A stretch of 64,000 nucleotides of DNA, taken from contig JBMNPD010000003.1 of the NCBI GenBank assembly GCA_050943415.1, forward strand, positions 3,962 to 67,961, given 5' to 3'. The first letter of the stretch is position 1. The number at the start of each line of letters is the position of its first letter. The DNA comes from Candidatus Dojkabacteria bacterium. Its GTDB lineage: Bacteria > Patescibacteriota > Dojkabacteria > SC72. Shown one piece after another: positions 22,173 through 40,774 of this stretch. Position numbers and translations under genes: made by a program. The notes under the pieces were generated by a model, which had not been told where the DNA came from, did no database searches, and worked only from the letters and a program-made list of their open reading frames with translations.

Positions 22173-22251
22173 TTTTAAATACCCCATTTATATACTACAA
22201 GATATAGCAGCACAGAGCAAATTCGATATTTTAGAATCAGGTTCAACAGAC

Positions 22252-22902: not shown

Positions 22903-22931
22903 TGATATAAATAATATGTAAATTAAAAAAC

Positions 22932-22944
22932 ACCCTTAAGGTAG
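22932..22944. repeat. REP-like palindrome CCTTAAGG upstream of RAYT-like gene A
   Basis: ACCCTTAAGGTAG, related to ACCTTAAAGGTAT at 23612. Confidence 0.35.
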
Positions 22945-23071
22945 TATGATAATGTTATCACATAGGGCTTAGATGTAGCAAGTTAACAAATTTTTAAGAA
23001 ATTATCGGCTAATTTAATAAAAGAAAATTTGATTTAACCTATTTTTAATAATTACCATATATCATTTAAGA

Positions 23072-23530
23072 ATGAGGACAAGTTTAGAAAAAGATATTAT
23101 TTATCATATATATAACAGAGGAAATAGAAAACAAACTATTTGTTTTACTAGAAAGGATTACGCAAAACTCCTTAATCTATTTTACAAATACTTTGATTAT
23201 CGCTCCTTTAATATTATTTCTCTTTGTATTATGCCCAACCATTTTCATTTGTTGGTTGTCAGAAACAGCAATCTAAACACCGAAAGAGCTATACAGAATG
23301 TCTCTTCTGTATATGCGAAATATATAAATAAAAAATACGGAGTAGTTGGGCATCTATTTCAAGGTACATATAAAAGAAAGAAAGTTACTGATATTGTCTA
23401 TTTTGAGAAGTTAGTTAAATATATTAACAATAATCCTATTGAATTAAGTCCTCACACACCTTTTATCCTCAAAGAAAATAGAAAACTGATTAACTACTAC
23501 AAAATGATTCTTTCTACAGAATCCGAATAA
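23072..23530 (+). CDS. Small HUH-type transposase-like protein (IS200/IS605 Y1 or REP-associated tyrosine transposase family), copy A
   Basis: Motifs YHIYNRGNRK and the HuH box CIMPNHFHLLVV. GHLFQGTYKRKKV carries the presumed catalytic Tyr, compared with the RAYT WQxRFY/IS200 FWARGY context. A paralog is at 40026-40550. Confidence 0.65.
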   Translation: MRTSLEKDIIYHIYNRGNRKQTICFTRKDYAKLLNLFYKYFDYRSFNIISLCIMPNHFHLLVVRNSNLNTERAIQNVSSVYAKYINKKYGVVGHLFQGTYKRKKVTDIVYFEKLVKYINNNPIELSPHTPFILKENRKLINYYKMILSTESE

Positions 23531-23611
23531 AGTAGCTTTTTCCAGCCCATAGAAACTTAAATATTTATGAAATAACTCTAAATAACCCTTACTAGGAGTA
23601 GCAAAACAACC

Positions 23612-23627
23612 ACCTTAAAGGTATTTA
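23612..23627. repeat. REP-like palindrome ACCTTAAAGGTATTTA downstream of RAYT-like gene A, overlapping the secY stop codon
   Basis: Near-identical to 13533-13548 (16 nt, 1 mismatch). Confidence 0.4.
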
Positions 23628-24880
23628 TTATAGCTTCTGACCGTTATCATTGATTCAATTTCTCTTTTTATCTCAAGAACTACACCAACTACAATTAGGA
23701 GGCCAGTCCCAGAAAAGACTGATCTTGGTATCAAACCTGTCTGAACAACAACATCTGGCAAGATAGAAAGAATAGCAAGGAAGATAGCACCTATTGCTGC
23801 CAATCTAAAGCTAACTTTTCGTAAATAATCAGAGGTGTTATCACCTGGTCTTATACCTTGTATAAATGCACCTTGTTTTTGCAAATTCTCTGCTAATTCA
23901 TCTGTTTTGAATACTACGGTTAGATAGAAGAATGAAAAGGCTATGACCAATACAAATATTAAGGAGTTATATATATATGGATTGTTCAACCAATCTAATA
24001 TTTTCTGCATAAAATCAGTTAATCCTTGATTATAGTTTTTACTTACAAGAAATTTTCCTATTAGCTGAGGGAATGAAATAAATGCCATAGCAAAGATTAC
24101 TGGCATTACTCCTGACTGAGTAGGCTTTATTGGAATATAGCTTTCCATTGCACCACCTGTTCTTACTCTTCTAGAATACTGTACTTTTACTCTCCTTTCA
24201 GCTTGTGTGACAAAAACAACGGATACTATTAAGAATATTGAAAATACTGTAAATACAATTTTTTGGCCAACATCCATTGTCATAAAATTTGTCCTTATGG
24301 TACCAGGTATTCCTGAGAGGATTCCAAGCATGATTAGATATGATGATCCTCCACCTAAACCACTCTCGGATATTAACTCTCCAAACCACATCATTACTAC
24401 AGAGCCAGCTGTTAATGTTGCAGACATTGCTACGAGTTCTAATGCTCCTAGTTGTGGTATTAATCCCATTGCAAGTAATGAGGAGTATATTACAAATGAT
24501 TGTAAGATGGCTAAGGGAACTGTTGCAAGTCTTGTATACATTGATATTTTTCTTCTTCCCTCTAGTCCTTCTTTTTGTAACTCTTCTAGTTTAGGAATTA
24601 CTGTAGCTAATAATTGGAAGATGATTGAAGCGTTAATATATGGTGTCAAACCTATTGCAACAATTGATGCTGTTTCTAATACTCCTCCCGAAACAGTAGA
24701 GAGTACTTCTCCTACTCCTGTTCCTTCAAACAGCTGTCTTATGGCATCTGCAGGGATTCCTGAAACTGGTATAGCAGAAAGTACTCTGTATACAACCATG
24801 ATCATCAACGAGTAGAGTATTTTTTTTCTAATTTCCTCTGTTTTCCAAATGGACTTTAATTTTTCTATAAATTTGTTCAT
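23615..24880 (-). CDS. secY: Preprotein translocase subunit SecY
   Basis: Ten TM helices and N-terminus MNKFIEKLKSIWKTEEIRKKILYSLMIMVVYRV. Confidence 0.95.
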   Translation of the reverse strand: MNKFIEKLKSIWKTEEIRKKILYSLMIMVVYRVLSAIPVSGIPADAIRQLFEGTGVGEVLSTVSGGVLETASIVAIGLTPYINASIIFQLLATVIPKLEELQKEGLEGRRKISMYTRLATVPLAILQSFVIYSSLLAMGLIPQLGALELVAMSATLTAGSVVMMWFGELISESGLGGGSSYLIMLGILSGIPGTIRTNFMTMDVGQKIVFTVFSIFLIVSVVFVTQAERRVKVQYSRRVRTGGAMESYIPIKPTQSGVMPVIFAMAFISFPQLIGKFLVSKNYNQGLTDFMQKILDWLNNPYIYNSLIFVLVIAFSFFYLTVVFKTDELAENLQKQGAFIQGIRPGDNTSDYLRKVSFRLAAIGAIFLAILSILPDVVVQTGLIPRSVFSGTGLLIVVGVVLEIKREIESMITVRSYNKYL

Positions 24881-24891
24881 TTTCTTCGAGA

Positions 24892-25335
24892 TTATTTAAT
24901 AACCCCACCAGACTTTTTTATTTTTTCAATGGCAGTAGTAGATAATTCAATTCCTTCTATTGTTAATTTCTTCTTCAAATCTCCATTTCCAAGGATTTTG
25001 ATTTTTTTAGAATTCTTTTTAACAATTCCTTTACTCTTCAAATTTTCTGGACTTACAGTATCTCCTGATTCGAAATATTTCTCCAATGTTCCTACATTTA
25101 CGGCACTTGCTTCCTCTTTGAACTTTCTATTAAATCCTTTATATTTTGGCATTCGTCTAAAGAATGGTACATTTCCTCCTTCAAAGAATTGCAATGATTT
25201 ATGTCCTGATCGTGATTTTTGTCCTTTTGTTCCTCTTCCTACAGTATGTCCTCCGACTCCTGATCCATAGCCTCTTCCAAGTCTTTTTGATTTCATTATT
25301 CTATTTTTTCTTTTTGGTATATTCTCTAAATTCAT
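24892..25335 (-). CDS. rplO: 50S ribosomal protein L15
   Basis: KRLGRGYGSGVGGHTVGRGTKGQKSRSG. Confidence 0.95.
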   Translation of the reverse strand: MNLENIPKRKNRIMKSKRLGRGYGSGVGGHTVGRGTKGQKSRSGHKSLQFFEGGNVPFFRRMPKYKGFNRKFKEEASAVNVGTLEKYFESGDTVSPENLKSKGIVKKNSKKIKILGNGDLKKKLTIEGIELSTTAIEKIKKSGGVIK

Positions 25336-25976
25336 TACTTTTCTTTACTTACTTTAGCTTTCTTATCTGTTTTCTTTTGAAATTTTTCTTTTCTTGATGC
25401 TTTTTCTTTCTTATGTTCTTTTCTCTTTTTATCTTCTTTTGCTTTCTTTTCTTTGTCAGCGGCTTCTTTGAGCTCGATTCTATCTCTCATCTTTGTCATT
25501 CTGCTCAGTACTCTGTCACTTCTCAATGCTTTTAGTGCTTTAAATGTGCAGTATGCATTTCCATTTGGATCAGGACTTCCTAGAATTTTGCCGTATACAT
25601 TATCCACACCAGCCATCTCTAGTACTGTTCTTACGGATGAACCAGCAATTACTCCTGTACCTGGTCTTGCAGGTCTTAGCAAAACTATTGAAGCTCCATC
25701 TTTCATCAACATCTCATGTGGAATGGTATCTCCAACAAGCTGTATTTTAGTTGCATATTTAGAAGCTAATCTTTCTCCTTGTTCTACAGCACCTCTTACA
25801 TCAGCACCTCTTCCTAATGCTACACCTACTGTACCGTGTCTATCACCTACCACAACTACAGTACTGAATCGCAATCTTTTACCACCTTTAGTTACTTTTG
25901 CAACTCTTCTTATTGGTAACGATTTCTTATCGTACATTTTTCTTTCTTTGTTGTTTTTTCTAATTTTCTCGTCCAT
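25335..25976 (-). CDS. rpsE: 30S ribosomal protein S5 with a Lys-rich C-terminal tail
   Basis: RVAKVTKGGKRLRFSTVVVVGDRHGTVGVALG, then the tail KEAADKEKKAKEDKKRKEHKKEK.... There is no L30 gene between S5 and L15. Confidence 0.95.
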   Translation of the reverse strand: MDEKIRKNNKERKMYDKKSLPIRRVAKVTKGGKRLRFSTVVVVGDRHGTVGVALGRGADVRGAVEQGERLASKYATKIQLVGDTIPHEMLMKDGASIVLLRPARPGTGVIAGSSVRTVLEMAGVDNVYGKILGSPDPNGNAYCTFKALKALRSDRVLSRMTKMRDRIELKEAADKEKKAKEDKKRKEHKKEKASRKEKFQKKTDKKAKVSKEK

Positions 25977-25985
25977 GTTTTTATT

Positions 25986-26312
25986 TTAAATTTTAATATC
26001 TTGTTTTCTCAATTCCTCTACAAATTCTTGTATTAATCCATGGTATTTGTAACCACTTCTATCAAATACTAACGAATCAAATTTCTTAGCTTCTTTTCCA
26101 AATTTCTTAGCCATATCTAATATATCTTTGCCATTTTTCTTTGACATAAATGACTTAATTACAGTGTTTTTGTCATCATCTGCTATTCCTGCATAGAAAT
26201 ATTTGTTGCTTTTGAATACAAATACTCTTGGCTTCTCAGAAGTACCACTTAGATTCTTTCTAATGTGTGCTTTTCTTCTTATTCTTTTTTCTTTTTTAGT
26301 TGTTTTTGACAT
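25986..26312 (-). CDS. rplR: 50S ribosomal protein L18
   Basis: KRIRRKAHIRKNLSGTSEKPRVFVFKSNKYFYAGI. Confidence 0.9.
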   Translation of the reverse strand: MSKTTKKEKRIRRKAHIRKNLSGTSEKPRVFVFKSNKYFYAGIADDDKNTVIKSFMSKKNGKDILDMAKKFGKEAKKFDSLVFDRSGYKYHGLIQEFVEELRKQDIKI

Positions 26313-26335
26313 CTTCTTAGTTATATATTTTTATC

Positions 26336-26875
26336 TTACTTAACACTTGATTTAGAACTCTTTCTTCTAACATACTCACCTTCGTATCGTATTCCTTTTC
26401 CTTTGTAAGGTTCTGGTTTTCTAATTTCTCTAATTGCTGCTGTAAATTCTCCTACTTTCTGTTTATCGTAACCTTTAATTGTAATCTTAGTTTCTTCTGG
26501 AACTTCTATTGTTATTCCTTCTGTTGGTTCTATCTTTACAGGATGGTTCCAACCTAAGCTCATAACTAATGTTTGTCCTTCCATTCTTGCTCTGTAACCA
26601 ACTCCTACTAATTCTAATTTTTTCTCGAATCCATTTTTTACTCCTTCGATTGCATTTTTAATCATCATTCTGTATGTACCGTGATTTGATTTTGACTGTT
26701 TCTCATCATTTTCTCTAGCAACTGTTACCTCTCCATTTTCAATATTACAAGATATGCCTTCTGGTAATGTAATTTTTAGTTCACCTAAAGGACCTGTTAC
26801 AGTAACTTCATTCTCTATCACTACTACTTCTACTCCTTCTTCAATTTTAATTGGTTCTAATCCTACTCTTGACAT
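26336..26875 (-). CDS. rplF: 50S ribosomal protein L6
   Basis: MSRVGLEPIKIEEGVEVVVIENEVTVTGPLG. Confidence 0.95.
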   Translation of the reverse strand: MSRVGLEPIKIEEGVEVVVIENEVTVTGPLGELKITLPEGISCNIENGEVTVARENDEKQSKSNHGTYRMMIKNAIEGVKNGFEKKLELVGVGYRARMEGQTLVMSLGWNHPVKIEPTEGITIEVPEETKITIKGYDKQKVGEFTAAIREIRKPEPYKGKGIRYEGEYVRRKSSKSSVK

Positions 26876-26881
26876 ATTTCA

Positions 26882-27259
26882 TTACCAAACTTCACATATT
26901 AATTCACCACCAAGGTTTCTGCTTTTTGCTAATGCTCCAGACATGAGACCTTCTGATGTACTGATTATGGAGATTCCTCTTCCATTCATCACTGGTTTAA
27001 TTTCTTTCTTTGACACATAGATTCTTTGACCAGGCTTACTTATTCTAGTCAATTTTGTTAATACTGACTCGTTGTTTTCATAGAGCAACTCTACTTCTAT
27101 TGTGTTTCCATTCTCTTCGTAGTTCCCTATCATTTTTTCATTCTTTAATACTTCAAGAATAGCCCTGTTCATATTTGTATTAACAACAAGGACTGTGTCT
27201 TTCTTTCTCATTATTCCATTTTGTATTCTTGCTAGTAAATCTGCTATTAAATCGTTCAT
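26882..27259 (-). CDS. rpsH: 30S ribosomal protein S8
   Basis: MNDLIADLLARIQNGIMRKKDTVLV. Confidence 0.95.
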   Translation of the reverse strand: MNDLIADLLARIQNGIMRKKDTVLVVNTNMNRAILEVLKNEKMIGNYEENGNTIEVELLYENNESVLTKLTRISKPGQRIYVSKKEIKPVMNGRGISIISTSEGLMSGALAKSRNLGGELICEVW

Positions 27260-27275
27260 TTTTATATTTATAAAA

Positions 27276-27470
27276 TTACCATATAGATTTTTTTACTCCA
27301 GGTACTTTTCCTTCGCTGGCTAATTGTTTAAAACATATTCTACAAATTCCATAATGTCTGAGATATCCTCTTGCCCTTCCACAAATCTCGCACCTATTAT
27401 ACACTCTAGTGCTAAATTTAGACTTCTTTTTTAATGCTTTTGCTTTGTATTCTTTAGCTGTTGTTGACAT
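27276..27470 (-). CDS. rpsZ: 30S ribosomal protein S14 type Z (zinc-binding)
   Basis: [39 protein letters not shown] prefer the second Met (27470) as the start, because the first Met at 27491 would overlap the rplE 3' end. Confidence 0.85.
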
Positions 27471-28008
27471 CTTTTCTAAAAGGGAATCCAAATTTATCTA
27501 AAAATAACTTCGCTTCTTTATCATTTTCTGCAGTTGTTACTAATGTAACTTCTAAGCTTCTTATCTTTGTAACATTATTAGGATCAATTTCTACAAAAAC
27601 TGTGTGATCTTCTATTCCAATTGTGTAGTTACCATGTCCATCGAATGATTTTGTGCTTAATCCTCTAAAGTCTTTTGTTCTTGGCAATACAACATTTACT
27701 AATTTGTCAAAAAACTCCCACATTCTCTGTCCTCTTAAAGTAACAGATGCTCCAATCTCCATTCCTTCTCTTATTTTAAATGCAGAGACTGCTTTCTTTG
27801 CTTTGTTAATAACTGGTTTCTGTCCAGAAATTTTAGCAAGTATTTCAACAATTTCATCCATTGCGGCTTTATTTGTAAGACTCTCTCCTGCTCCTACATT
27901 TATAACTATCTTCTTCAGAGTAGGTACTTGCATAATGGACTGATATTTGTTCTCTTCCATTATCTCTTTCTTAATTCTTTTGTTGTATTCGTCTAATAGT
28001 CTTGCCAT
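27454..28008 (-). CDS. rplE: 50S ribosomal protein L5
   Basis: [29 protein letters not shown]. Confidence 0.95.
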
Positions 28009-28010
28009 TT

Positions 28011-28406
28011 TTATTTTTTAGTTTCTTTCTTAATTTTTTTATTATCTTTTTTAGTTTCTTTTTCTTCTTTCTTTTCTACTTTTGTTTCTTTTTTAGTAGT
28101 TACGATATCTTTTCCACACTTCTTACATACTCTAATAATTTCTTCTCCTTCCTTTCTTAATCCAACTCTTGTAGGTTTACCACATAAAGGACATACAAAC
28201 ATTACTTTAGAGATAGGGAAAGGTTTCTCTATTGTTAAGATTTCAGAAGTTCTTGTTCTTCCATCCCCCTTTAGATGTCTCTTGTACAGATTTAAGCCCT
28301 CTACAACAAGAGTTCTCTTCTTAGGGTTTAGAGCAACAACAGTTCCTCTTTTCCCTGCTTCTTTTCCGTATAGTATTTTTACTGTATCTCCTTTTCTAAT
28401 TTTCAT
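28011..28406 (-). CDS. rplX: 50S ribosomal protein L24 carrying a Cys4 zinc-ribbon insertion and a Lys-rich tail
   Basis: N-terminal KOW domain MKIRKGDTVKILYGKEAGKRGTVV, then CPLCGKPTRVGLRKEGEEIIRVCKKCG, then the tail KKETKVEKKEEKETKKDNKK. Confidence 0.9.
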   Translation of the reverse strand: MKIRKGDTVKILYGKEAGKRGTVVALNPKKRTLVVEGLNLYKRHLKGDGRTRTSEILTIEKPFPISKVMFVCPLCGKPTRVGLRKEGEEIIRVCKKCGKDIVTTKKETKVEKKEEKETKKDNKKIKKETKK

Positions 28407-28415
28407 TGTTTTTAT

Positions 28416-28787
28416 TTATAATACTTCTGGTGCTAAAGAAACTATTTTATCAAAACCTCTTTCTTTTAGTTCTCTAGCAACAGGACCAAATATACGACTT
28501 CCTTTAGGTGTTTTATTTTTCATATCAATTAAAACCACTGCATTATCATCAAATCTTATGTAGGAACCATCTTTTCTTCTATGTTCTTTGTTTGTTCTTA
28601 CTATTACTGCTTTATGCATTTCATGATCTTTAACTCCTGCATGTGGTATTGATTTCTGTATAGAAACAGTAACCACATCTCCTATTCCTGCATATCTTCT
28701 ATTAGAAGCACCTGGTATACCTATAACTTTGGCTTCTCTTGCTCCGCTGTTATCTGCTACTGTAAGTATTGTTTCTTTCTGTACCAT
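28416..28787 (-). CDS. rplN: 50S ribosomal protein L14
   Basis: [24 protein letters not shown]. Confidence 0.95.
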
Positions 28788-28788
28788 A

Positions 28789-29043
28789 TTAATCTTTCTT
28801 AATTACTACCCATCTTATTTTCTTTGAAAGAGGTTTACTCTCTCTAATTGTTACTTTATCTCCTATATTTAGTTCTTCATCTGTTCTAGCAAAGAAAACT
28901 TTCTTCCTTTTAACAACCTTTTTGTAAACAGGATGCGCTTCTAACCTATCAACTCTTACTTTAACGGTTTTATCCATCTGATTTCCTATCACAACTCCCT
29001 CTATTATTCTTTTGTTGCTTTTTCTTGTATTATTTTTTTCCAT
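28789..29043 (-). CDS. rpsQ: 30S ribosomal protein S17
   Basis: [30 protein letters not shown]. Only 49 nt separate it from rplP, and there is no L29 ORF. Confidence 0.9.
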
Positions 29044-29092
29044 ATTATTAATAACGGCTTGTATTTTATCAATTATTTATGTTATTCACAAG

Positions 29093-29506
29093 CTAAATCT
29101 CTTGTCTTGATACAAATTTTGTCTTAACTGAAAATTTATGTCCGGCCAATCTCAAAGCTTCTTTACAAGTTGTTTCGTCCAAACCTCCTATCTCTAGTAA
29201 CATAGTTCCTGGCAAAACTACTGCTACATATCCCTCTACAGCTCCTTTTCCACCTTGCATTTTACTGTTAATTGCTCTCTGGGTATAGGATTTATGTGGA
29301 AAGATTTTTATCCATACTTTACCTTTTCTTTTTGTATAGTTAGAAACTGCTCTTCTTGCCGCTTCTATTTCCCTTGCATTAATCCAACCACACTCTATAG
29401 ATTTGAGTCCATATTCACCAAAAGTTACTTTATTGTTTACAGTAGCAACTCCTTTCATTTTTCCTCTAAATTCTTTTGGATGTTTTCTTTTTTTAGGCTG
29501 TAACAT
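29093..29506 (-). CDS. rplP: 50S ribosomal protein L16
   Basis: MLQPKKRKHPKEFRGKMKG... Confidence 0.95.
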   Translation of the reverse strand: MLQPKKRKHPKEFRGKMKGVATVNNKVTFGEYGLKSIECGWINAREIEAARRAVSNYTKRKGKVWIKIFPHKSYTQRAINSKMQGGKGAVEGYVAVVLPGTMLLEIGGLDETTCKEALRLAGHKFSVKTKFVSRQEI

Positions 29507-29523
29507 ATTTATTACTTAATATT

Positions 29524-30171
29524 TTATTCTTCATAATCAACATCATTTTTTTCTCCTTTGTATATCCAAACTTTTACTCCCATAAGTCCTGCGTCCATTG
29601 TTTGTGCTACTTCGTATGCATAATCAACATCTGCTCTTAAAGTTTGTGCAGGAACAGAACCTGCTGTAGTTTTTACAGTTCTAGCTTGGCTAGCATTATT
29701 AATTCTTCCTGACACCCATATTTTCAATCCTTTAGCTCCTGCTGCCATTATTTTTTCTTTTGCACTTGCAGCAAGTAATTTAGATGGTTGTCTTCTTTCA
29801 ATTCCATCTGCAATGGTTCTTGCAACAATTCTTGCTGACAAATCTGCTTTTCCAACCTCTTTTACTTTCAATTCTACATTTGTTTTCAATTTCTTAGACA
29901 ACTCTTTCTGAAGTAAATCTATTCCTTCTCCACCTCTTCCTATAGCTACACCAGGTTTTGCAACATATGCTAATACTTCGACTTTACCTGCATATCTATT
30001 TATCTTTACTGCATCCAACCCTGCATTTTTCATAACTTCCCTAACTCTATTTTTAATCATCAAATCCTCTTTTAACAATTTTGGGTAATCTTTTTTATGT
30101 GAATACCAAACAGAATCCCATGTTCTGTTTATTCCCATTCTAATTGCTTTTGGATGTACTTTTCTTCCCAT
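29524..30171 (-). CDS. rpsC: 30S ribosomal protein S3
   Basis: MGRKVHPKAIRMGINRTWDSVWYS with a KH domain. Confidence 0.95.
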   Translation of the reverse strand: MGRKVHPKAIRMGINRTWDSVWYSHKKDYPKLLKEDLMIKNRVREVMKNAGLDAVKINRYAGKVEVLAYVAKPGVAIGRGGEGIDLLQKELSKKLKTNVELKVKEVGKADLSARIVARTIADGIERRQPSKLLAASAKEKIMAAGAKGLKIWVSGRINNASQARTVKTTAGSVPAQTLRADVDYAYEVAQTMDAGLMGVKVWIYKGEKNDVDYEE

Positions 30172-30173
30172 AC

Positions 30174-30515
30174 TTACTTTACTTTTAATTCTAAATTAAT
30201 ATGTGATCTTCTTTTACTAATTCGAGACACTCTTCCTCTTGAAGCAAATCTCGTTCTTTTCAATGTTCTTGCCCCGTCAACTGTTATACTTTTTATTACT
30301 AAAGCATCTTTATCTACTCCATGAATATCCCTAGCACTAGCTATTGCAGAAAGTAATGCTTTCTTAACAGATAGTGCACCTTTCTTGTTTACTAATTCTA
30401 AAACATTTAATGCTTCCTCAACTTCTTTTCCTCTTATCATGTCTACTACCAACCTTAACTTTAGAGGTGATTCTGCAATATTTCTAATTGTAATTTTTAC
30501 TTTTTTTTCTTCCAT
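30174..30515 (-). CDS. rplV: 50S ribosomal protein L22
   Basis: Its position and L22-like sequence. Confidence 0.9.
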   Translation of the reverse strand: MEEKKVKITIRNIAESPLKLRLVVDMIRGKEVEEALNVLELVNKKGALSVKKALLSAIASARDIHGVDKDALVIKSITVDGARTLKRTRFASRGRVSRISKRRSHINLELKVK

Positions 30516-30532
30516 AATATTTTTAATTATAT

Positions 30533-30838
30533 TTACGCTTCAAATCTACCACTGCTACCGTATACTTTAGATAGTTTACCTTTCTTAGCATGACCTTTAA
30601 ATTTTCTAGTAGGAGCAAATTCTCCTAATCTATGGTTAATCATTGACTCTGCTACTAAAACTTCCTCAAATTTTTTTCCATTGTGTACCAAGAACTTTAA
30701 TCCAACCATTTCTGGTGTAATTGTAGAAGATCTTGCCCATGTCTTTATTGGAGACATATTGCCAGCATCTCTAGCATTCTTCACTTTCTTCATCAATTTT
30801 TCGTCTGTATATGGTCCTTTCTTTAATGATCTCGACAT
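30533..30838 (-). CDS. rpsS: 30S ribosomal protein S19
   Basis: [19 protein letters not shown]. Confidence 0.95.
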
Positions 30839-30855
30839 ATTTTAGTTAATATAAT

Positions 30856-31707
30856 TTATTTCTTTGCAAACGGTCTAGTTTTAGGTCTTCTTCTCCTGAT
30901 TATGAACTTCTCTGTCTTAGCATTTCTTCTTGTTCTAGTACCAATTCTATGACCCCAAATATCTTTTGCTTTTCCACCAGTCTGACCTTTTCCTTCACCA
31001 CCACCGTGTGGGTGTTCTGCTGGATGCATAGCCATTCCTCTTACTTCTGGTCTCCAACCTAGATTTCTTTTTCTTCCTGCTTTACCCAATTTGACATTTA
31101 ATTTCTCCTCATTTCCAATTTGTCCAACTGTTGCCATACAATCTGCAAATACAAGTCTAATTTCACCTGATGGCATTTTAATTTGTACATACTTTCCTGT
31201 TGGATCAACACCTTGAACAATTGCTGTCTGTCCTGCAGATCTTGCAAATACAGCTCCTCTACCTGGCACATTCTCAACACAGTGAACATATGTACCTGAT
31301 GGAATATTCTTTATCCTCATAGCATTACCAGGTAAAATGTCTACCTGTTCTCCTGATATAACTGTACTTCCCTCTTTCAAATCTCTAGGTGCAATGATAT
31401 ATCTTTTCTCACCATCAGCATATGTCAAAAGAGCTAAATATGCTGTTCTATTTGGATCAAAGTAGAGTCCTGTAACTTTCGCAGGTATATCAAATTTATT
31501 TCTTTTAAAATCAACTATCCTGATTCTTCTCTTAAAACCACCACCTCTATGTCTTACTGTTATCCTACCTTGATTGTTTCTACCTGCACTTTTTTTCTTA
31601 GGAATAGTTAAAGATTTAGGACCAGAGCCTTTCTTTAACATGCTCCTATCTTCTAATCTTGTTTTTCTTCTTGTCGAAGTTGTAGGTTTAAATTTTTTTA
31701 TTGCCAT
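30856..31707 (-). CDS. rplB: 50S ribosomal protein L2
   Basis: ...MHPAEHPHGGGEGKGQTGG. Confidence 0.95.
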   Translation of the reverse strand: MAIKKFKPTTSTRRKTRLEDRSMLKKGSGPKSLTIPKKKSAGRNNQGRITVRHRGGGFKRRIRIVDFKRNKFDIPAKVTGLYFDPNRTAYLALLTYADGEKRYIIAPRDLKEGSTVISGEQVDILPGNAMRIKNIPSGTYVHCVENVPGRGAVFARSAGQTAIVQGVDPTGKYVQIKMPSGEIRLVFADCMATVGQIGNEEKLNVKLGKAGRKRNLGWRPEVRGMAMHPAEHPHGGGEGKGQTGGKAKDIWGHRIGTRTRRNAKTEKFIIRRRRPKTRPFAKK

Positions 31708-31710
31708 ATT

Positions 31711-32004
31711 TTAGCCTTTCAAAAACTCATCTATCTTATCTCCTTTTTTAAGTGTCACTATCATTTTAACTTTATCGGACTCTCTTCTTTGCTTGTATGT
31801 TTTGTAGTCTCTCTTCATCTTTCCAGGTTTGACTACACTGTTTACATCTACTACTTTAACCTTATATTTAGTTTCTACTGCTTTCTTTACCTCTATCTTG
31901 TTATATCCTCTTGCAACTGCAAATACATACTTGTTATCTGCATTTGCCATAGCATAGGTTTTCTCCGAAATCACTGGTTTTATTACTATCTTTTTATTTT
32001 CCAT
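31711..32004 (-). CDS. rplW: 50S ribosomal protein L23
   Basis: Its position and L23-like sequence. Confidence 0.9.
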
Positions 32005-32611
32005 TTGTTAATCTTTTTTCTAAAATATCTACGATCTCGTTATCTACATATACTAGATTTGATGTTATTAAATGTTTTGCATTTACTTTCTCTGCTGTTA
32101 TTACTTTAGCTTTTTCTGAATTTCTTATCTTTTTGCTTAAATCTTCATTATTACTAATCATCAATATTTTCTTTTTATCTTCTTTAGCTTCTTTTCTAAT
32201 ATTTTCAGCAGATTTCTCTGTACTGTTTACAAACTGTAGTTGTTCTTTTCTTAATCTTTCAGAAAGCATTATACATACCGCCTTTCGAATCATCTTTTTG
32301 TTTAATTTTCTACTATAATTCTTGTCAGAAACATTACCAAAGGTAACTCCTCCACCTACCCATATTGGGGATCGAGATGAACCGTGTCTTGCTCTTCCTG
32401 TTCCTTTTTGCCTCCAAGGTTTCTTCCCACCTCCTGAGACTTCCGATCTAGATTTTACATTAGCTGTTGCTTTTCTCTCATTGTTTCGGTAGACATAGAG
32501 TACTTGAGCTAAAAGATCGGCATTGTATGGAACTTCCCACACTGCTGGATTTAGCTTCTGTTCTACTTTCTTTTCTTCTTTTTTTGTTTTCTTAACTTCT
32601 TTCTTTTCCAT
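31994..32611 (-). CDS. rplD: 50S ribosomal protein L4 with a Lys/Glu-rich N-terminal extension
   Basis: ...[34 protein letters not shown]. Confidence 0.95.
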
Positions 32612-32612
32612 A

Positions 32613-33197
32613 TTATTCAGAATATATTGCTACTAAATCACCATTTGATCCAGGTACTGGACCTGAGACCAATATATAGTTATCTTTAATATCTACTATC
32701 TCTTTATTTAACAATGTAACTGTATCTCCTCCTTTTCTACCTGCCATCTTCTTGCCTTTTAATACTCTACCTGGAGTCGTACCTGCACCTATTGATCCTG
32801 GTGCTCTATGTCTATCGGATTGTCCATGTGTTTTAGGACCTCCCGCAAAGCCCCATCTCTTAACAACTCCTGCAAAACCTTTTCCTTTAGACACTCCTTT
32901 TACTGAAACTTTATCTCCAATTGTAAAAATGTCTGATTTAACTTCATCTCCTATCTGTACTTCATCTTTTAATGAACCTTTAAAATATCCTGTTTGAGCA
33001 GGAACTCTCTTAGCAACTTTGTATTTACCAATCATAGCTTTGGTTGGTTTTCTTTTTTCACCAATTCCTAATTCAAAACCTTCCTTCTCTACAAAAGAGA
33101 GAATACAACCTTCTACATCAACAACAGTAACAGGAACAACCTTGCTGTCCTTAAAAACTCTTGTCATTCCTTTTTTTATTCCTATTAATGCTTTCAT
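32613..33197 (-). CDS. rplC: 50S ribosomal protein L3
   Basis: I prefer the start at the internal Met ([15 protein letters not shown]), which matches the L3 N-terminus. The track ORF extends 16 codons further upstream to 33245. Confidence 0.9.
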
Positions 33198-33207
33198 ATA
33201 ATTTTTA

Positions 33208-33519
33208 TTACTGAATACCAATATCAACACCAGCAGGCATCTCAAGTCTCTGAAGAGAATCTATGGTCTTCGGTGTTGGATCGATAATATCAATTAGCCT
33301 CTTATGAGTATTAATCTCAAAGTGTTCCATTGAGCTCTTGTAAATAAATGGTGACCTTGTAACTGCAACTTTCCTCTTTTTTGTTGGAAGAGGTATTGGT
33401 CCTGCTACTTTAGCACCTGTGCTTATAGCTGTCTCTATGATACTTTTAGCAGATCTATCAACTACTACTGAATCATATCCTTTTAATTTTACTCTGATCT
33501 TTGCAGTTAAATTTGCCAT
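33208..33519 (-). CDS. rpsJ: 30S ribosomal protein S10
   Basis: [24 protein letters not shown]. Confidence 0.95.
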
Positions 33520-33552
33520 TCTATTTAAAAGAGCTAAATTAAATTATTAAGT

Positions 33553-33580
33553 AACAGAGGGCAGATTACTACCCTCTGTT
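33553..33580 (-). terminator. Hairpin between tuf and rpsJ (tuf terminator/attenuator)
   Basis: ACAGAGGG(cagattacta)CCCTCTGT with an 8-bp stem, then a moderately U-rich tail on the minus strand. Confidence 0.5.
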
Positions 33581-33589
33581 TTAACTTAC

Positions 33590-34765
33590 TTACTTTAACA
33601 CCTCCGTTACAATTCCTTGTCCAACTGTCTGGCCTCCTTCTCTAATAGCGAATGAGACTCCTTTTTCGATCGCAACTGGTGCCATCAATTTGACAGTAAA
33701 CTCAGTATTATCACCAGGGGCAACCATCTCTGTACCTTCTAGTAATATTACTTCTCCAGTAACATCAGCAGTTCTGATGTAGAACTGTGGTTTGTAACCT
33801 GATACAAATGGAGTATGTCTACCACCCTCTTCTTTGCTTAAAACATATACTTCTGCTTTAAAGTCTGTGTGTGTAGAGATGCTACCAGGAACTGCTAATA
33901 TCTGTCCTCTCTGTACATCCTCTCTCTTCAAACCTCTTAGTAAAATACCAACATTATCTCCTGCCTGACCTTCGCTTAATGTTTTGTTAAACATTTCTAC
34001 TCCAATTACTGCTGTCTTCTGTGCTTTTCTACCCATTCCCAAAACTTCAACCTCATCACCAACTTTAACAATACCTCTCTCTATTCTTCCTGTTACAACT
34101 GTACCTCTTCCTTCAATTGAGAAGATATCTTCTATAGGCATCAAGAATGGTTTCTCTGTATCTCTCTCTGGTAGAGGAATATATTCATCAACAGCTTTCA
34201 TAACTTCTCGCATTGCTGCTGCACCTTCCTCTTCTCCCTTAAATGCTTTCAATGCATCACCTTCAATCATTGGACAATCTGGATCATATCCATACTTCTT
34301 CAACAAATCCTGAATATCTGACTTAATCAATTCTAAAAGCTCAGGGTCTGGTTTTCCAAATGTATTGATAAATACAACAATCTTAGGTACACCTACCTGC
34401 TTTGCAAGTAAGATATGCTCCTTTGTCTGAGGCATAGCACCATCACTAGAAGAAACTACTAAAATAGCTCCATCCATCTGAGCTGCTCCTGTGATCATAT
34501 TCTTAATGTAGTCTTTGTGACCTGGACAATCTACCAAAGCGTAGTGTCTGTTCTCTGTTTCAAACTCAACGTGTGCAACTGCAATAGTGATTTCTTTTGC
34601 TCTCGCTTCTGGATCTTTATCCAACTTATCAATCATTCGATCAGCATCACTAGCATCTGCTGTGAATGTTCTAAGAATACCACGAACAAATGTTGTCTTA
34701 CCGTGATCGATATGACCCAAAGTTCCGATATTCATATGTGGCTTTGTTCTATTAAATTCTGCCAT
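33590..34765 (-). CDS. tuf: Elongation factor Tu
   Basis: [17 protein letters not shown] and the C-terminal beta-barrel domains. Confidence 0.97.
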
Positions 34766-35054
34766 GAATATATTTATTAAAAATTAAATACAATATTATT
34801 ATATTGCAAAGTTCTCTTTTAAGAACCTGCGATGAATACTATCAAAAAGTTCGAAGTAATGCAAGACCTTTAGCATCAATAAATATGTTCTTTAAGCAAT
34901 TGTATTACAAATAAGAAAAAAAGCATTATCTAATTTAGTAATTCACCTAATTTTACTACCTACTCATCAGAGCTTTTACTACAAAGAGAAAAAATGACTT
35001 TAAGATTCATTTTATATATACTGGAAAGAAGATAACAAAACAAAGTACAAAGAT

Positions 35055-36407
35055 ATGCCTAAATACAAAGCAATATGTATAGACCTAGACCAAACAATTG
35101 CCAATACAGAAGATTATCAGTATAGTTCTGACAACAAAGACAAATACAGAGATACTGCTGAATGGCATCTATACCAATACCTTAAACCACATTTAAAAGT
35201 TATATCTTGGCAAACTTTTATAGATGTCTATCAACTATCAAAGAATCAGGTAAAAGAAATTCTCAAAGGGAAAGCTGCCAGTCACAGCAGATATCTATAT
35301 ATACAGAAAGTACTTGAAAATCTAAATTGCAGATTTAGACCCGACCTCGTATACGATGCAACTAACATTTATTGGAACTATATTCTTTCTAATATGCAAC
35401 TTTTTCCTGAAGTATTAACAACACTTCAAGCTATAAAAAGAGAAGGAATCACAATTATGGTTGTAACAGATTTGACAGCAGACATTCAGATACTAAAGTT
35501 AAAGAAATTAAATATAAATCAATATATAGATTATTTAGTCACATCAGAGGAAGCAGATGCTGACAAACCAAATCCTCAAGTTGGTACTTTAATTTCAAAG
35601 AAGCTAGGAATTAACAGAGAAGACATTCTTATGATTGGGAATAACCCCAAGACCGACATTCAGTTGGCACATAATATAAAAATGGATTCTGTGCTTTTTG
35701 ATTTTTATAGCAAGTATCCTCCTGCAGAGCGAAATAATCCCACTTTTTATACAACTAATTTTAAAGATATATTAATATTTATGGATATCAAAGAAAGGAC
35801 ATATACTGACCAAAAGCTTGTTGTCTTTGACATGATTGGCACTTTAACTACAGACCCACGCCTTATTTCCCATGTTTTTCTTTCTACATTCCCAAATATG
35901 GATAGAGATTTAGTGAAGAAACATTACAAGGAGTATAAGGTTAACAATATTGATAGAGAAACATTTTGGAAGAATATAGGAATCACAGACTTTGAAGAAG
36001 CGGAAAAGAAATTTCTTAACAAAATAGAGTTAAGAAATGGTATTATTGAATTACTCATACAGATGAAGCAAAAGCACAAACTTGCGATACTTTCTAATAT
36101 TTCTAAGGAATGGGGAGCATTCTTGTCTAATAAATACGGATTTAAGAATATCTTTGATGAAATTGTTTTTAGTGGAGATTATCATGTAAAGAAACCTGAC
36201 TACCAAATTTACAAAATTCTTGTAGACAAATTTCCAGAAATATCTCCTGAAAATGTTTTCTTTGTTGATGATGACTTAGAAGACCTAAAATCAGGGAAAG
36301 ATTTCTTAATGAAAACAATATGGATAAAAAGTGACCAAGTTTCCACCAATTATATCCCTGATTATGTAATAGATCACATATCAGAAGTAAATAATATTGT
36401 TACTTAA
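35055..36407 (+). CDS. Tandem HAD-superfamily hydrolase (two HAD-like domains fused)
   Basis: Domain 1 has motif [12 protein letters not shown]. Domain 2 has motif [13 protein letters not shown], motif [10 protein letters not shown], and K...[11 protein letters not shown]. Confidence 0.65.
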
Positions 36408-38506
36408 ACTTTCTTTCCAGCAATCTCTTCAGCAACATTTTTAGGTACTTCAGCATAGTGAGAAGGTTCCATAGTTGCACTACCTCTACCACTAGTTAGA
36501 GATCTTAATTCACTTGTATAACCAAATAGTTCTGAAAGAGGTACCATTGCAGTTATTCTACTAATACCACTACCCAAACTCTCTGTACCTTGTATCTGCC
36601 CTCTCTTGCTACTTAAAGATCCAGTAACATCACCCATATGATTATCAGGTGTATCAACATCAACTTTCATAATTGGTTCCAAGAGTATTGGATCACCCAT
36701 TTTGCAACCCTCTTTAAATGCCATAGATCCTGCAATCTTAAAAGCTGCCTCAGATGAGTCTACATCGTGATATGATCCGTCATATACAGTAACTTTAATA
36801 TCTACAACTGGATATCCTGCTACAACTCCTGATTTCATAGCTTCCTCTACTCCTTTCTGGATAGCAGGTATGAATTCTCTAGGAATTGCACCTCCTTTAA
36901 CTTCGTTTATGAACTCAAAACCCTTACCTTTCTCATTAGGTTCTAATTTCAACCAACAGTGACCGTACTGACCCTTACCACCTGACTGCTTAATATATCT
37001 ACCCTCTGATTGTTCTACAACATTCTTAATAGTTTCTTTGTAAGCTACTTGAGGTTTACCAACATTTGCTGCAACATTAAATTCTCTTTTTAACCTATCA
37101 ACAATAATATCCAAATGTAGTTCACCCATTCCAGATATGATTGTTTGACCAGTTTCTATATCAGATTTAACTGTAAAAGTAGGATCTTCTTTAGTTAATC
37201 TTGCTAAAGCCTCAGACATTTTCTCTTCATCAGACTTTGTAGCAGGTTCAATAGCTTCAGATACAACAGGCTCTGCAAAATCTATCTTTTCAAGAATAAT
37301 AGGGTGAGATTCATCACAGAGAGTATCTCCTGTTATGGAATCTTTCAAACCTACAATTGCTCCGATATCTCCTACTTTCAAAGAATCTACTTCTTCTCTA
37401 TCATCAGCATGCATTAAGATTAATCGACTTGCTCTCTCTTTTATACCTTTTGTAGAGTTCAATACATATGAACCTGAATTTATCTTTCCTGAATAGATTC
37501 TAAAATATGAAAGGTTACCAATATGAGGATCGTTTACTATCTTAAATACTAAACCAGAGAAAGGTTCACTCTCTTCTGCTTTTCTTTCCTCTTCTTCATT
37601 TGTCTTAGGGTTAACTCCTTTAACTGCTTCTTTATCAAGAGGAGAAGGTAAACATATTGTAATGTAATCTAAAAGAGTCTTTGACATAGCAGTTCTAGAA
37701 TCACCTCCAAGAACAGGGAAGATGCTTCCACTTAAAGTTCCTTTGCGTAAAGCTGCAAACAACTCTTCCTCTCCTAATTCATCTCCAGCAAAATATTTTT
37801 CCATCAATGCATCATCCTGCTCTGCAAGTACTTCTACCAAAATATTCCTTAACTCATCAACTTTGCCTTTAATATCATCAGGTATTGGACACTCTATCAA
37901 ATCAGGAGTATCTGTGCCCTCATACTTATACGCTTTCATCTTTACCAAATCTACATATCCACAAAGATCCTGTTCTTTACCTATTGGATATGTTACAGCA
38001 ACTGCCTTGTTACTTAACCTATACTTAATTGTCTCAAAACTGTTTTCAAAGCTACCACCAATCAAGTTAATCTTGTTCATAAAGCAAATTCTAGGAACTT
38101 TATACTTGTTTGCTTGTCTCCATACAGTCTCAGACTGAGGCTCTACACCTTTCCTACCATCAAAGATAACTACTGCACCATCTAATACTCGCAAAGATCT
38201 TTCTACTTCTGCTGTAAAGTCTACATGACCCGGTGTATCAATGATGTTAATTCTATATTTATCACCATTATGCTCCCAGAAACAGGTTACCGCAGCAGAC
38301 ATAATTGTAATTCCTCTTTCCTGCTCCTGTTCCATAAAGTCAGTAGTAGCCTCACCTTCATGGGTTTCCCCGATTTTATGTACCTGACCTGTAAAATACA
38401 GTAATCTCTCAGTAGTAGTAGTCTTACCAGCATCGATATGAGCGATAATACCAATGTTTCTTACCTTATCTAAAGGCATTTGTACATTATACGTATTTTT
38501 ATCCAT
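36404..38506 (-). CDS. fusA: Elongation factor G
   Basis: [27 protein letters not shown], five-domain length. Confidence 0.97.
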
Positions 38507-38555
38507 AAAATTTACTATATAAATTAACCTGCAAAACAGTTGTGATTATACAGAA

Positions 38556-40016
38556 CTAATTGATATTAGACAACAACTTCAATGCCTCTTCTGTCACAGA
38601 GTTATCTAAATCATACTCTACAGCTTTCTCAAAAGCAGTCTTCGCAGCTTGAGAATCACCACTTTCAACACTATACCTTCCAAGAAGAAGATAGTACTTA
38701 GAATTATATTTATCCAATCCTCCTAATTCATTAAGCACTGAATTAGCTTCAGTTAAATTCTCATTCTTAAGAAGAATCTTTCCTTTCCAATACAGATACT
38801 CCTTTTTCTCCTCATCAGTAAGAGCAATTTTCTTTAATTGCTCCAAATAGTAATCAATCTTGTTGAATTCATTCAATTCATAATTACTTCTGATACCTAA
38901 TAAATAAAGGAAAGCACTCTGAGAAGAAGTTAGCATATTTGTCACACTCTCAGCAGCTTTCAAATACTGTTTGTTTCTCAAAAGGAATAGTATATATTCA
39001 TCAGCTAAATCTTTAATAATATTCTTTCCTGCGTAACTTACAGAAGTTGAATAATATTTCATAGCGGAGTCCAAATCGTTCTTTCTAACATACGCCCTAG
39101 CCATAACCCAAGCAATATCTGTTTGCATATAACCCAAATTCAGCGATTTCTCCAAAACTTCCAATCCTTTATCATACTGACCCGATTCAACATATCCTCT
39201 ACCTAAATAGTACAAACCTTCAACATATTCAGAAAGTTCCTCAACTCGAGGTTCCAAAATACTTACAGCTAAAGAAGGATAACCGTTGTTTAAAAACACG
39301 CGAGCAAGCTTAGTGGAATTAAACTTCGTATCCGTATCCAACGACTGCAAAACTTTACTAAACTCTTCATAATATAGCTTAAACTTATCAGATGCTGCAA
39401 CCTCCTTTAGAGTATTTTCTGCCTTACCGTAATCTGACAATGAGTAGATATATGATCTTAACAAAGTTGCCTCTATTAAATCATCGCCACTGTAACCATC
39501 TAATTCAAACTGCCTCTTTGCTTCCTCAACCCTACTAACATTTAACAAAGACTTCCCAAGCATCAAATCTGCATTCATATTCTCCACTCCTAAACCAATT
39601 CCTTTCTGATATATATCCTTTGCCTTTTCAAATTCTTTGTTTTCATAGTAATAATTACCAACCATCACATACAATCGAGATTTATCTGTTGCAGATAGTG
39701 CATTTGCTGATTTTTCAACAATTCCCAATGCATCTGCGCTACGATTTTTCAATAACAAAATCTTAATAATACCCTCGTAAGCTGCAATATCTGTTGGAAC
39801 TACTTTTGTAGCATCATAATACTTGTTAATTGCAGAAACATACTCGTGTGCTTCAAAACTTCTCTGTGCCTCACTCAATTTTACGCTGTAATCATCACGT
39901 TGTTCCTGAGTAACACGCCTATCCAACCACCACCAAACAAACAATCCGACCAAAACACAAAAAAGAAGTGCTATTGGAGCCCAAACCTTTAACCTTTTCT
40001 TAACCAAATCATTCAT
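38556..40016 (-). CDS. Membrane-anchored TPR-repeat protein
   Basis: N-terminal TM, then repeated Ala/Tyr-pattern TPR-like helices along the whole length. Confidence 0.6.
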   Translation of the reverse strand: MNDLVKKRLKVWAPIALLFCVLVGLFVWWWLDRRVTQEQRDDYSVKLSEAQRSFEAHEYVSAINKYYDATKVVPTDIAAYEGIIKILLLKNRSADALGIVEKSANALSATDKSRLYVMVGNYYYENKEFEKAKDIYQKGIGLGVENMNADLMLGKSLLNVSRVEEAKRQFELDGYSGDDLIEATLLRSYIYSLSDYGKAENTLKEVAASDKFKLYYEEFSKVLQSLDTDTKFNSTKLARVFLNNGYPSLAVSILEPRVEELSEYVEGLYYLGRGYVESGQYDKGLEVLEKSLNLGYMQTDIAWVMARAYVRKNDLDSAMKYYSTSVSYAGKNIIKDLADEYILFLLRNKQYLKAAESVTNMLTSSQSAFLYLLGIRSNYELNEFNKIDYYLEQLKKIALTDEEKKEYLYWKGKILLKNENLTEANSVLNELGGLDKYNSKYYLLLGRYSVESGDSQAAKTAFEKAVEYDLDNSVTEEALKLLSNIN

Positions 40017-40025
40017 ACATACAGT

Positions 40026-40550
40026 TTACCACAAATCAAGAAATTGGGAATCAAACCCACCATCTTTTGCAAGGTTTAACTTAGGTAACACCTCCTTTAT
40101 ATATAACCACCTATATTTCTTATTCTTATTACATAATCTATCCTTAACAGGGTTGTTTTTAATATATTCCAACAAATTATCAAAATCATTACTATACAAG
40201 ATCTCACGACATTTGAAAGTACCTTGAAAAAGAGAACCACAGAGTCCATGTCTTCTGTTATAGTACATACTATATGCTGTCATACTTTTATGCATCATTC
40301 TAGAAATATCACTCTTACTAGCACCCAACTTTAGAATTAGATGGTAGTGATTTGGCATTATACAGTAAGATAAAATAGAGACATCTAAAGTTTTTTCGGC
40401 TCTACGTAGACAACGGATAAAGTTGTTGTAATCTTTAACATCTAGACATATTCTGCACTTTCTATGACCACGATTATAAACATGGTATATGCCAAATTTT
40501 CTATAATCTTTTATCCTTTTACTATCTGACATTGTTAATATAATAAACAA
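40026..40550 (-). CDS. Small HUH-type transposase-like protein (IS200/RAYT family), copy B, with Phe at the presumed catalytic Tyr position
   Basis: IYHVYNRGHRK and the HuH box CIMPNHYHLILK. It has GSLFQGTFKCREI where copy A has GHLFQGTYKRKKV. Confidence 0.6.
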   Translation of the reverse strand: MFIILTMSDSKRIKDYRKFGIYHVYNRGHRKCRICLDVKDYNNFIRCLRRAEKTLDVSILSYCIMPNHYHLILKLGASKSDISRMMHKSMTAYSMYYNRRHGLCGSLFQGTFKCREILYSNDFDNLLEYIKNNPVKDRLCNKNKKYRWLYIKEVLPKLNLAKDGGFDSQFLDLW

Positions 40551-40578
40551 TAATTATTAAAATAAGATTAACTAACAA

Positions 40579-40598
40579 GGTCTAACCTAGGTTAAACC
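40579..40598. repeat. REP-like hairpin palindrome (copy 1) upstream of RAYT-like gene B
   Basis: GGTCTAACCTAGGTTAAACC; the core TAACCTAGGTTA is a perfect palindrome. Confidence 0.5.
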
Positions 40599-40732
40599 TA
40601 ACACATTACGAAGCTTAATCTAACAATATTCCCTACAAATGGAGTTCATATTCATCAATGATTTTTAATATTATTTGCACAGACACTTTCTCTATACTGG
40701 AAGCGAATTCCCTTCTATTTTACTTGCCAACA

Positions 40733-40752
40733 GGTTTAACCTAAGTTAAACC
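40733..40752. repeat. REP-like hairpin palindrome (copy 2), direct repeat of 40579-40598
   Basis: GGTTTAACCTAAGTTAAACC, with 8-bp arms GGTTTAAC/GTTAAACC. Confidence 0.5.
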
Positions 40753-40774
40753 TCGCGCATGTTGGTACAAGAGT

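Follow-up and report, generated by a model that had tools for sequence, protein, structure and literature searches.

The closest described relatives of the two genes reported here are the class 2 TnpA-Y1 proteins, all of which carry the signature Y---NP, with NH[YF]H and 'FQ' given in addition for subclass 2.1 (Quentin et al. 2018, PMC6006769, Table 1). In TnpA-REP of Escherichia coli the active site consists of Y115, H59/H61 and N119, and H123 and E161 complete the metal coordination (Messing et al., PMC3479197). RAYTs are single-copy and vertically inherited genes for which a host function has been proposed generally (PMC5581495), and in TIRtrons the terminal inverted repeats (TIRs) may reach into the 3′ end of the gene, and may be partly self-complementary (Di Nocera et al. 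2013, PMC3733652). Here, we analyzed a 64-kb stretch of DNA, called the window below, from a contig of Candidatus Dojkabacteria, a member of the Candidate Phyla Radiation (CPR/Patescibacteria). Two genes, Y1_A and Y1_B, flank the str-S10-spc cluster, one at each end; they are separated by about 16.5 kb and inverted relative to each other. Very probably they are anciently diverged, vertically inherited and domesticated class 2 TnpA-Y1 genes of the RAYT/TIRYT-like kind, with an intact catalytic apparatus and no longer active insertion sequences, and Y1_B has kept its cognate repeats. The two genes are as follows.

23072..23530, + strand: Y1_A, 152 aa, antisense between secY and adk; class 2 TnpA-Y1 (predicted RAYT-like HUH nuclease)
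40026..40532, - strand: Y1_B, 168 aa from the ATG at 40532; class 2 TnpA-Y1

The interval between Y1_A and Y1_B holds secY, the spc and S10 ribosomal-protein genes, tuf, a HAD gene on the + strand, fusA and a gene for a 486-aa tetratricopeptide repeat (TPR) protein. A preliminary description of this DNA had reported both open reading frames (ORFs), A at 23072-23530 (+) with 152 aa and B at 40026-40550 (-) with 174 aa from a TTG, as an inverted pair bracketing secY through rpsJ, tuf, the HAD gene and fusA; this was confirmed, with the addition of the TPR gene at 38556-40016. For Y1_B, the mechanical ORF from the TTG reaches 40550 and gives 174 aa, and the ATG at 40532, which gives 168 aa, is the start used by the database call and by all close orthologues. 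The residue numbering below follows the 168-aa start. The proteins of both loci have already been deposited as 'MAG: transposase [Candidatus Dojkabacteria bacterium]'. The two proteins share the motifs that had been quoted for them, with an identity of 38% across 116 aa (E = 2e-28), and tblastn of the window showed that they are its sole two copies. At the DNA level, blastn between the two loci found no meaningful nucleotide similarity.

Both proteins scored above the gathering cut-off of 23 for Pfam Y1_Tnp (PF01797), with 50.5 bits for Y1_A and 35.8 bits for Y1_B, and this alignment check bore out their earlier assignment as paralogues of the HUH Y1, RAYT-like type. Single-sequence phmmer searches of the PDB with Y1_A and Y1_B returned nothing relevant, and a family profile was therefore needed. 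The profile of the family alignment, which held 42 and later 52 members, matched E. coli TnpA-REP (4ER8, E = 1.9e-9) and ISDra2 TnpA (2XM3). Two HUH histidines, one tyrosine and the asparagine four residues after the tyrosine were invariant in 52/52 members, and these columns aligned to H59/H61, Y115 and N119 of TnpA-REP. In Y1_A the residues are H57-F-H59 (23240-23248), the catalytic Y117 (23420-22) and the metal-ligand N121 (23432-34), and in Y1_B they are H62-Y-H64 (40349-40341), the catalytic Y123 (40166-64) and N127 (40154-52). The tyrosine motif reads YINNNP in Y1_A and YIKNNP in Y1_B, with the asparagine present in 52/52 and the proline in 51/52 members of the family. The corresponding family segment 'vkYihlNP' aligned to VDY115IYIN119P of TnpA-REP and QKY132IE of ISDra2, and Y132, which aligns with the invariant tyrosine, is the residue replaced in the ISDra2 'Y132F mutant' named in the PDB title of 2XO6.

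An AlphaFold2 model of Y1_B (pLDDT 89.9, pTM 0.84) showed the β-α-β-β-α-β-α Y1 core, with the HUH motif on the strand 62-69, Y123 and N127 on the last helix 114-130, and F106 at the entry of β4. The top Foldseek match of this model was 4ER8, which is TnpA-REP bound to a REP hairpin (E = 5e-9, TM 0.67), and ranks 2-30 were the ISDra2, IS608 and IS200 transposases. Y1_A and Y1_B are true members of the HUH/Y1 family. Because the active-site residues and the Y1 fold are intact, both copies look catalytically competent, and they are predicted to bind single-stranded DNA (ssDNA) and to cut it via a 5′-phosphotyrosine intermediate. The 5′-phosphotyrosyl bond would form on the tyrosine of helix αD (PMC3479197, PMC6006769), with the HUH histidines and the asparagine probably holding the metal.

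The preliminary description had placed the catalytic tyrosine elsewhere, in the motif LFQGT(Y/F)K, and had proposed from a Tyr-to-Phe replacement in copy B that this copy was domesticated or inactive. The difference itself is real, since the residue is Y100 in Y1_A (23369-71) and F106 in Y1_B (40217-15), but the position is not that of the catalytic tyrosine. The column is split into 26 F and 26 Y among the 52 relatives, and the whole B clade has F. In the profile alignment to 4ER8 and 2XM3, the segment 'lFqgrf' that contains the column aligned to IWQPRF98W of TnpA-REP, so that the flagged residue corresponds to F98 in a biochemically active protein. Y1_B keeps H62/H64, Y123 and N127, and the conclusion that it is inactive was wrong because it was based on the wrong residue. 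This corrects a tempting misreading for the subfamily as a whole, in which the tyrosine of YIxxNP is catalytic and the aromatic residue of LFQG(x)[Y/F] is not.

We then compared the two loci with those of related genomes, for which 12-20 kb of DNA were covered per relative. The neighbors that define the loci in the window are the following.

22252..22902, - strand: adk, divergent from Y1_A
22903..23071, no strand: divergent spacer between adk and Y1_A, 169 bp, with no TIR or palindrome
23615..24880, - strand: secY, convergent with Y1_A; the spacer between them has 84 bp
38556..40016, - strand: gene for the 486-aa TPR-repeat protein, between Y1_B and fusA; position kept in the orthologous loci

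The secY/adk junction is among the most conserved gene junctions in bacteria. Syntenic copies of Y1_A were present in 6 genomes, and the orthologues, with their identity to Y1_A, are these.

P0002, at L001: 70%
P0003, at L003/L004: 55%
P0006, at L005: 48%
P0010, at L134 (a 671-kb contig): 45%
P0011, at L141: 43%

Each of them sits antisense in the interval from secY to adk, and the cluster continues as usual with infA-rpmJ-rpsM-rpsK-rpsD-rpoA-rplQ. The identity of Y1_A dropped steadily with distance, from 70 to 45%, alongside secY (85 to 72%) and adk (83 to 63%). Copy A had been described as inserted at the secY/adk junction on the opposite strand; the location holds, and the insertion is ancient and fixed, not recent. 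Syntenic copies of Y1_B were present in 3 genomes, with orthologues at 65% and 63% identity in L012 and L014, where the gene order is that of the window: the UvrD helicase, the G5-protein gene on the opposite strand, Y1_B, TPR, fusA, tuf and rpsJ. The divergence of these orthologues was similar to that of their TPR, G5 and L4 neighbors, and in the window Y1_B is co-directional with the TPR-fusA-tuf-rpsJ genes and lies 9 bp upstream of them. In a neighbor-joining tree the A-type and B-type proteins fell into separate clades, each with several genomes. The separate clades and the conserved loci indicate that the paralogues are old and that the arrangement was inherited.

The pair had been suggested to mediate inversion of the block between them or to mark a past rearrangement. 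The same arrangement was found in every relative examined, an outcome that the preliminary description had itself named as refuting its proposal. The block is also co-linear with its flanks, that is with adk and the downstream alpha-operon genes (adk-infA-rpoA), and the copies, which lack DNA homology to each other, cannot serve as a substrate for homologous recombination. The positions of Y1_A and Y1_B on either side of the str-S10-spc cluster are thus inherited, and are neither a recombination substrate nor the scar of a rearrangement.

Three copies of a 22-nt repeat surround Y1_B.

40732..40753, no strand: distal upstream repeat, -221 from the Y1_B ATG; perfect palindrome with 9-bp arms, AGGTTTAAC-TTAG-GTTAAACCT, 22 bp upstream of the divergent G5-protein gene
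40578..40599, no strand: proximal upstream repeat, -67 from the Y1_B ATG; AGGTTTAAC-CTAG-GTTAGACCT, with one arm mismatch
40072..40093, no strand: 3′ repeat, +439, inside the end of the Y1_B ORF (codons VLPKLNL) and 56 bp upstream of the TPR start

The element is a bipartite repeat centered on CCTAGG with the pattern AGG-N5-CYTARG-N5-CCT, and the 3′ copy at 40072-40093 is inverted relative to the upstream copies. The window contained only 3 matches, all at Y1_B, where chance would give 0.04 with the specific pattern and 0.18 with the generic AGG-N5-CYTARG-N5-CCT when one mismatch is allowed. The outer pair (I3) has arms of 35 nt, 40059-40093 and 40732-40766, with 80% complementarity, and apart from I3 a whole-window search for repeat families returned only low-complexity or chance pairs. 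In L012 and L014 the element occupies the same three offsets with different arm sequences, for example AGGTTCTAC-CTAG-GTAGAACCT and AGGGTGAAC-CTAG-GCTCACCCT. More distant B-clade genes lie elsewhere, P0127 between an rsmD-like gene and spoU-recG, P0124 upstream of rpsF and P0125 beside an M50 peptidase gene, and these loci still carry the CCTAGG-core element, the motif or a TIR being found in L135, L139 and L140. P0127 (L135) has a perfect 27-nt terminal inverted repeat with its 3′ arm overlapping the end of the ORF. The element was found only next to B-clade genes in ~140 kb of related loci and only beside B-clade Y1 genes in ~200 kb of Dojkabacteria DNA. It was absent from all A-type loci, and a scan for hairpins and TIRs around Y1_A and its five orthologues found none, although the positive controls worked.

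Folding of the sites as ssDNA gave a hairpin of -7.4 kcal/mol (z = -4.3) at -221, a marginal one of -3.4 kcal/mol (z = -1.4) at -67, and no hairpin for the +439 site alone (z about 0). A description of the repeats as hairpins with compensatory changes was dropped after 14 instances had been scored and folded, because it held for some sites only, and 'bipartite inverted repeat' was used instead. The Y1_B repeats have the published TIRtron/REPtron layout (PMC3733652), down to the 3′ overlap with the ORF and the partial self-complementarity. A scan of public genome contigs, a collection without the source genome, gave at least 118 scattered matches to the palindrome in unrelated taxa, and among the 80 of these matches that were listed there was no Dojkabacteria sequence and no genome with more than one site. 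A scan of public metagenome contigs, likewise without the source genome, returned three short unrelated contigs that carried no Y1 gene. The matches in both collections were no more than chance ones. One unrelated metagenome contig of 1.1 kb (L136, GC 49.5%) has at its end (1047-1101) tandem units of the 11-mer AGGTTTAACCT, which is the half-unit of the window palindrome; this contig has no Y1 gene, and the similarity is probably coincidental.

When compared with the described systems, Y1_A and Y1_B are members of Pfam Y1_Tnp and of the class 2 TnpA-Y1 proteins and show the defining features of both. They share with TnpA-REP/RAYT (E. coli YafM, 4ER8) the fold and the layout of HUH and Y---NP, including the asparagine metal ligand, and resemble RAYTs (PMC5581495) in being single-copy and vertically inherited, with low copy number, divergent copies (two, at 38% identity) and syntenic orthologues. 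Unlike TnpA-REP, to which they are ~19% identical, they have 'FQ' for 'WQ' and lack the C-terminal extension that carries E161, and no dispersed population of REP/REPIN or BIME sequences was found here. They are not demonstrably RAYTs in the strict sense. The TIRYT/TIRtron group, which corresponds approximately to subclass 2.1 of Quentin et al., is matched by NH[YF]H, FQ and the ~60-aa spacing from HUH to the tyrosine. As in that group, Y1_B and the B clade are flanked by inverted repeats, which need not be dispersed, and the 3′ repeat overlaps the end of the ORF. In contrast to it, the TIR motif of Y1_B is AGG-N5-CYTARG-N5-CCT and not GGGGWSAS, Y1_A is without any TIR, and both proteins are short (152-168 aa) with no C-terminal helix-turn-helix (HTH) or DnaA_C-like domain, Pfam finding no second domain. 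Y1_B fits the definition of a TIRtron, but its TIR motif differs and the C-terminal HTH is missing. The IS200/IS605 TnpA proteins (IS608, ISDra2, IS200; class 1.1) have the Pfam Y1_Tnp core in common with both genes and subterminal repeats in common with Y1_B only. They differ from Y1_A and Y1_B, which have Y---NP and not Y---Q, lack tnpB, are neither multi-copy nor near-identical, and are fixed in synteny.

Several results weigh against our interpretation of both genes as domesticated RAYT/TIRYT-like genes, one of which kept cognate repeats. The NCBIfam equivalog for RAYTs, NF047646 REP_Tyr_transpos, has a cut-off of 80 bits, which neither Y1_A (39 bits) nor Y1_B (68.4 bits) reached. The window, the related loci and the public scans, which did not include the source genome, yielded no dispersed REP or TIR family, and the classical role of a RAYT in mobilizing genome-wide REPINs is thus unsupported here. 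The B-type locus is kept only in close relatives, with P0127, P0124 and P0125 lying elsewhere. A clearly stable ssDNA hairpin formed in just 1/3 of the window repeats, and the 11-nt halves in distant B-clade loci were more like direct repeats than complementary, so that hairpin recognition is not established and both a hairpin and a duplex reading are possible. The DNA covered was also limited, to 64 kb of the source genome and the shorter loci of the relatives.

Among the other explanations, the duplex reading is the least unlikely. The 22-nt repeats could be duplex operators instead of ssDNA substrates of the transposition type, bound either by an unrelated dimeric regulator or by Y1_B in autoregulation, that control the divergent G5/Y1_B promoters and the TPR-fusA promoter. 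In the window, the distance from each site to the start codon downstream of it (that of G5, Y1_B or TPR) is 22-56 bp, the blocks AGG, CYTARG and CCT recur at a spacing of 11 bp or one helical turn, the inner bases are not always complementary, and 2/3 of the sites are poor hairpins. However, the 3′ arm in L135 is at the convergent end of two genes and not upstream of a start, arm changes at several sites keep the complementarity, and the motif accompanies B-clade Y1 genes into four unrelated neighborhoods, which ties it to the Y1 gene rather than to the regulation of fusA or G5. We regard operators as a rather unlikely explanation, and one that is compatible with domesticated TnpA-Y1 genes if Y1_B is itself the binder.

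That Y1_A is a decaying and functionless remnant, kept only because its deletion would harm the expression of secY or adk, is very unlikely. Y1_A does evolve faster than its neighbors (45-70% against 63-90% identity) and has no cognate repeats, but the ORF is full-length (148-156 aa) with catalytic and core residues invariant in every member of the A clade, across genomes whose secY is only 72% identical, and these genomes of ~0.67 Mb are under strong deletion pressure. It is highly improbable that the genes are active IS200/IS605-type insertion sequences that recently arrived on either side of the cluster. IS200/IS605 was the basis of Pfam Y1_Tnp, and the inverted and palindromic repeats that flank Y1_B resemble IS200 ends; on the other side stand the class 2 Y---NP in place of the class 1.1 Y---Q, the NCBIfam transpos_IS200 profile, for which Y1_A scored 17.9 bits against a cut-off of 55 and Y1_B gave no match, the absence of tnpB and of near-identical copies, and orthologous positions that are kept down to 43% identity. 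Hardly credible, finally, is the earlier proposal that Y1_B is catalytically dead and that the inverted pair mediates or records an inversion of the ribosomal and elongation-factor block. The Tyr/Phe difference in LFQGT(Y/F)K and two genes bracketing the cluster in inverted orientation spoke for it, but the flagged column aligns to F98 and not to Y115 of TnpA-REP, Y1_B retains its full set of active-site residues, the copies share no nucleotide similarity, and order and orientation are the same in all relatives at both ends, in a block that runs co-linear into adk-infA-rpoA.

If Y1_A and Y1_B are domesticated TnpA-Y1 genes, then Y1_B most probably recognizes its flanking 22-nt repeats. B-clade genes may have been mobile as units of gene plus TIR in the deeper past and, in this lineage, may have become fixed upstream of TPR-fusA. 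Y1_A would have lost its flanking repeats or never had them, and its fixation between secY and adk, on the strand opposite to theirs, probably predates the divergence of the sampled Dojkabacteria. That genomes of ~0.67 Mb have kept Y1_A with every catalytic residue argues for a host function. A more specific form of this idea, that Y1_A is a lineage-wide domesticated HUH ssDNA nuclease whose host function is tied to its place in the ribosomal-protein supercluster, is clearly unlikely. If true, Y1_A might process ssDNA exposed at a very highly transcribed region or insulate secY from adk transcription, and it would be explained why an intact antisense nuclease gene is kept in such small genomes at a highly conserved junction. 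It could also explain why B-clade paralogues are repeatedly found beside translation genes (fusA, rpsF, thrS-infC).

Two such paralogues were observed in other genomes. The one in L139 (1006-1923) is directly upstream of rpsF, and the one in L135 (6030-10453) is ~1.1 kb from, and two genes beyond, the thrS-infC-rpmI-rplT-pheST cluster. Since CPR genomes are small and translation-rich, the position of B-clade genes beside translation genes could be a coincidence. In a literature search, no account of Y1 genes fixed in the ribosomal-protein clusters of the CPR came up. The conserved secY / Y1 / adk arrangement may be unreported, but it is a new instance of a known phenomenon. The two genes reveal no new kind of system and would be an ordinary, though tidy, case of domesticated transposases. 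As such they would give a clean example from the CPR, with Y1_A frozen at secY/adk across a broad clade of Dojkabacteria, and a small genome that holds one paralogue flanked by repeats and another that lacks them would offer a natural comparison for RAYT/TIRYT-like nucleases that no longer move.

In the spacer between adk and Y1_A, the adk strand carries a TGTGATAAC-like box that is kept in the orthologous spacers. On the adk strand, too, a TGTGATAA(C)-like box at 22950-22962 of the window resembles an extended -10 element and is also found ~50 nt upstream of adk in the spacers of L001, L003 and L005. Its conservation suggests that adk may have its own promoter, now that Y1_A stands between adk and secY. 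A shared upstream box, TTTTAATAATTA, was considered as a paralogue-specific signal and dropped, because its 7 matches against 4.5 expected make it a probable generic -10-like element. A scan for sigma-70 promoters gave fewer matches than shuffled sequence and was uninformative, the sole terminator-like match in the promoter and terminator scans was the -67 repeat itself, and an Rfam search gave no match at the Y1_A or Y1_B locus.

Other features of the cluster set this lineage apart from its relatives. The glmS gene (20236-22017, - strand) lies between adk and infA inside the ribosomal-protein supercluster, preceded by a glmS ribozyme leader (22045-22179, - strand; Rfam RF00234, 42.6 bits). 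In the five related genomes infA always comes straight after adk, which makes glmS a lineage-specific insertion into the cluster. The gene on the opposite strand between tuf and fusA (35055-36407, + strand) encodes a 450-aa protein with two HAD-hydrolase domains, and since fusA is followed directly by tuf in L012 and L014, it is a second, species-specific insertion. Upstream of fusA are the TPR gene and Y1_B (36404-40532, - strand) and not rpsL-rpsG, and tblastn with E. coli S12 and S7, which gives a lead only, found no homologue in the 64 kb. This lineage seems to have a split str operon.

Within the ribosomal-protein genes, the gap between rpsQ (S17) and rplP (L16) is 49 bp (29043-29093), which leaves no room for rpmC (L29), and the same gap measures 48-58 bp in L001, L003, L005, L134 and L141, the five relatives with sequence across it. 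The genes for S5 and L15 abut at 25335 with no rpmD (L30) between them, and the absence of L30 is a known trait of the CPR. Elsewhere in the window, a tRNA is located at 5095-5166 (- strand), and a bacterial class A RNase P RNA (14552-14850, - strand; 158 bits) lies between fmt and a DUF4349 gene, just downstream of rpsI.

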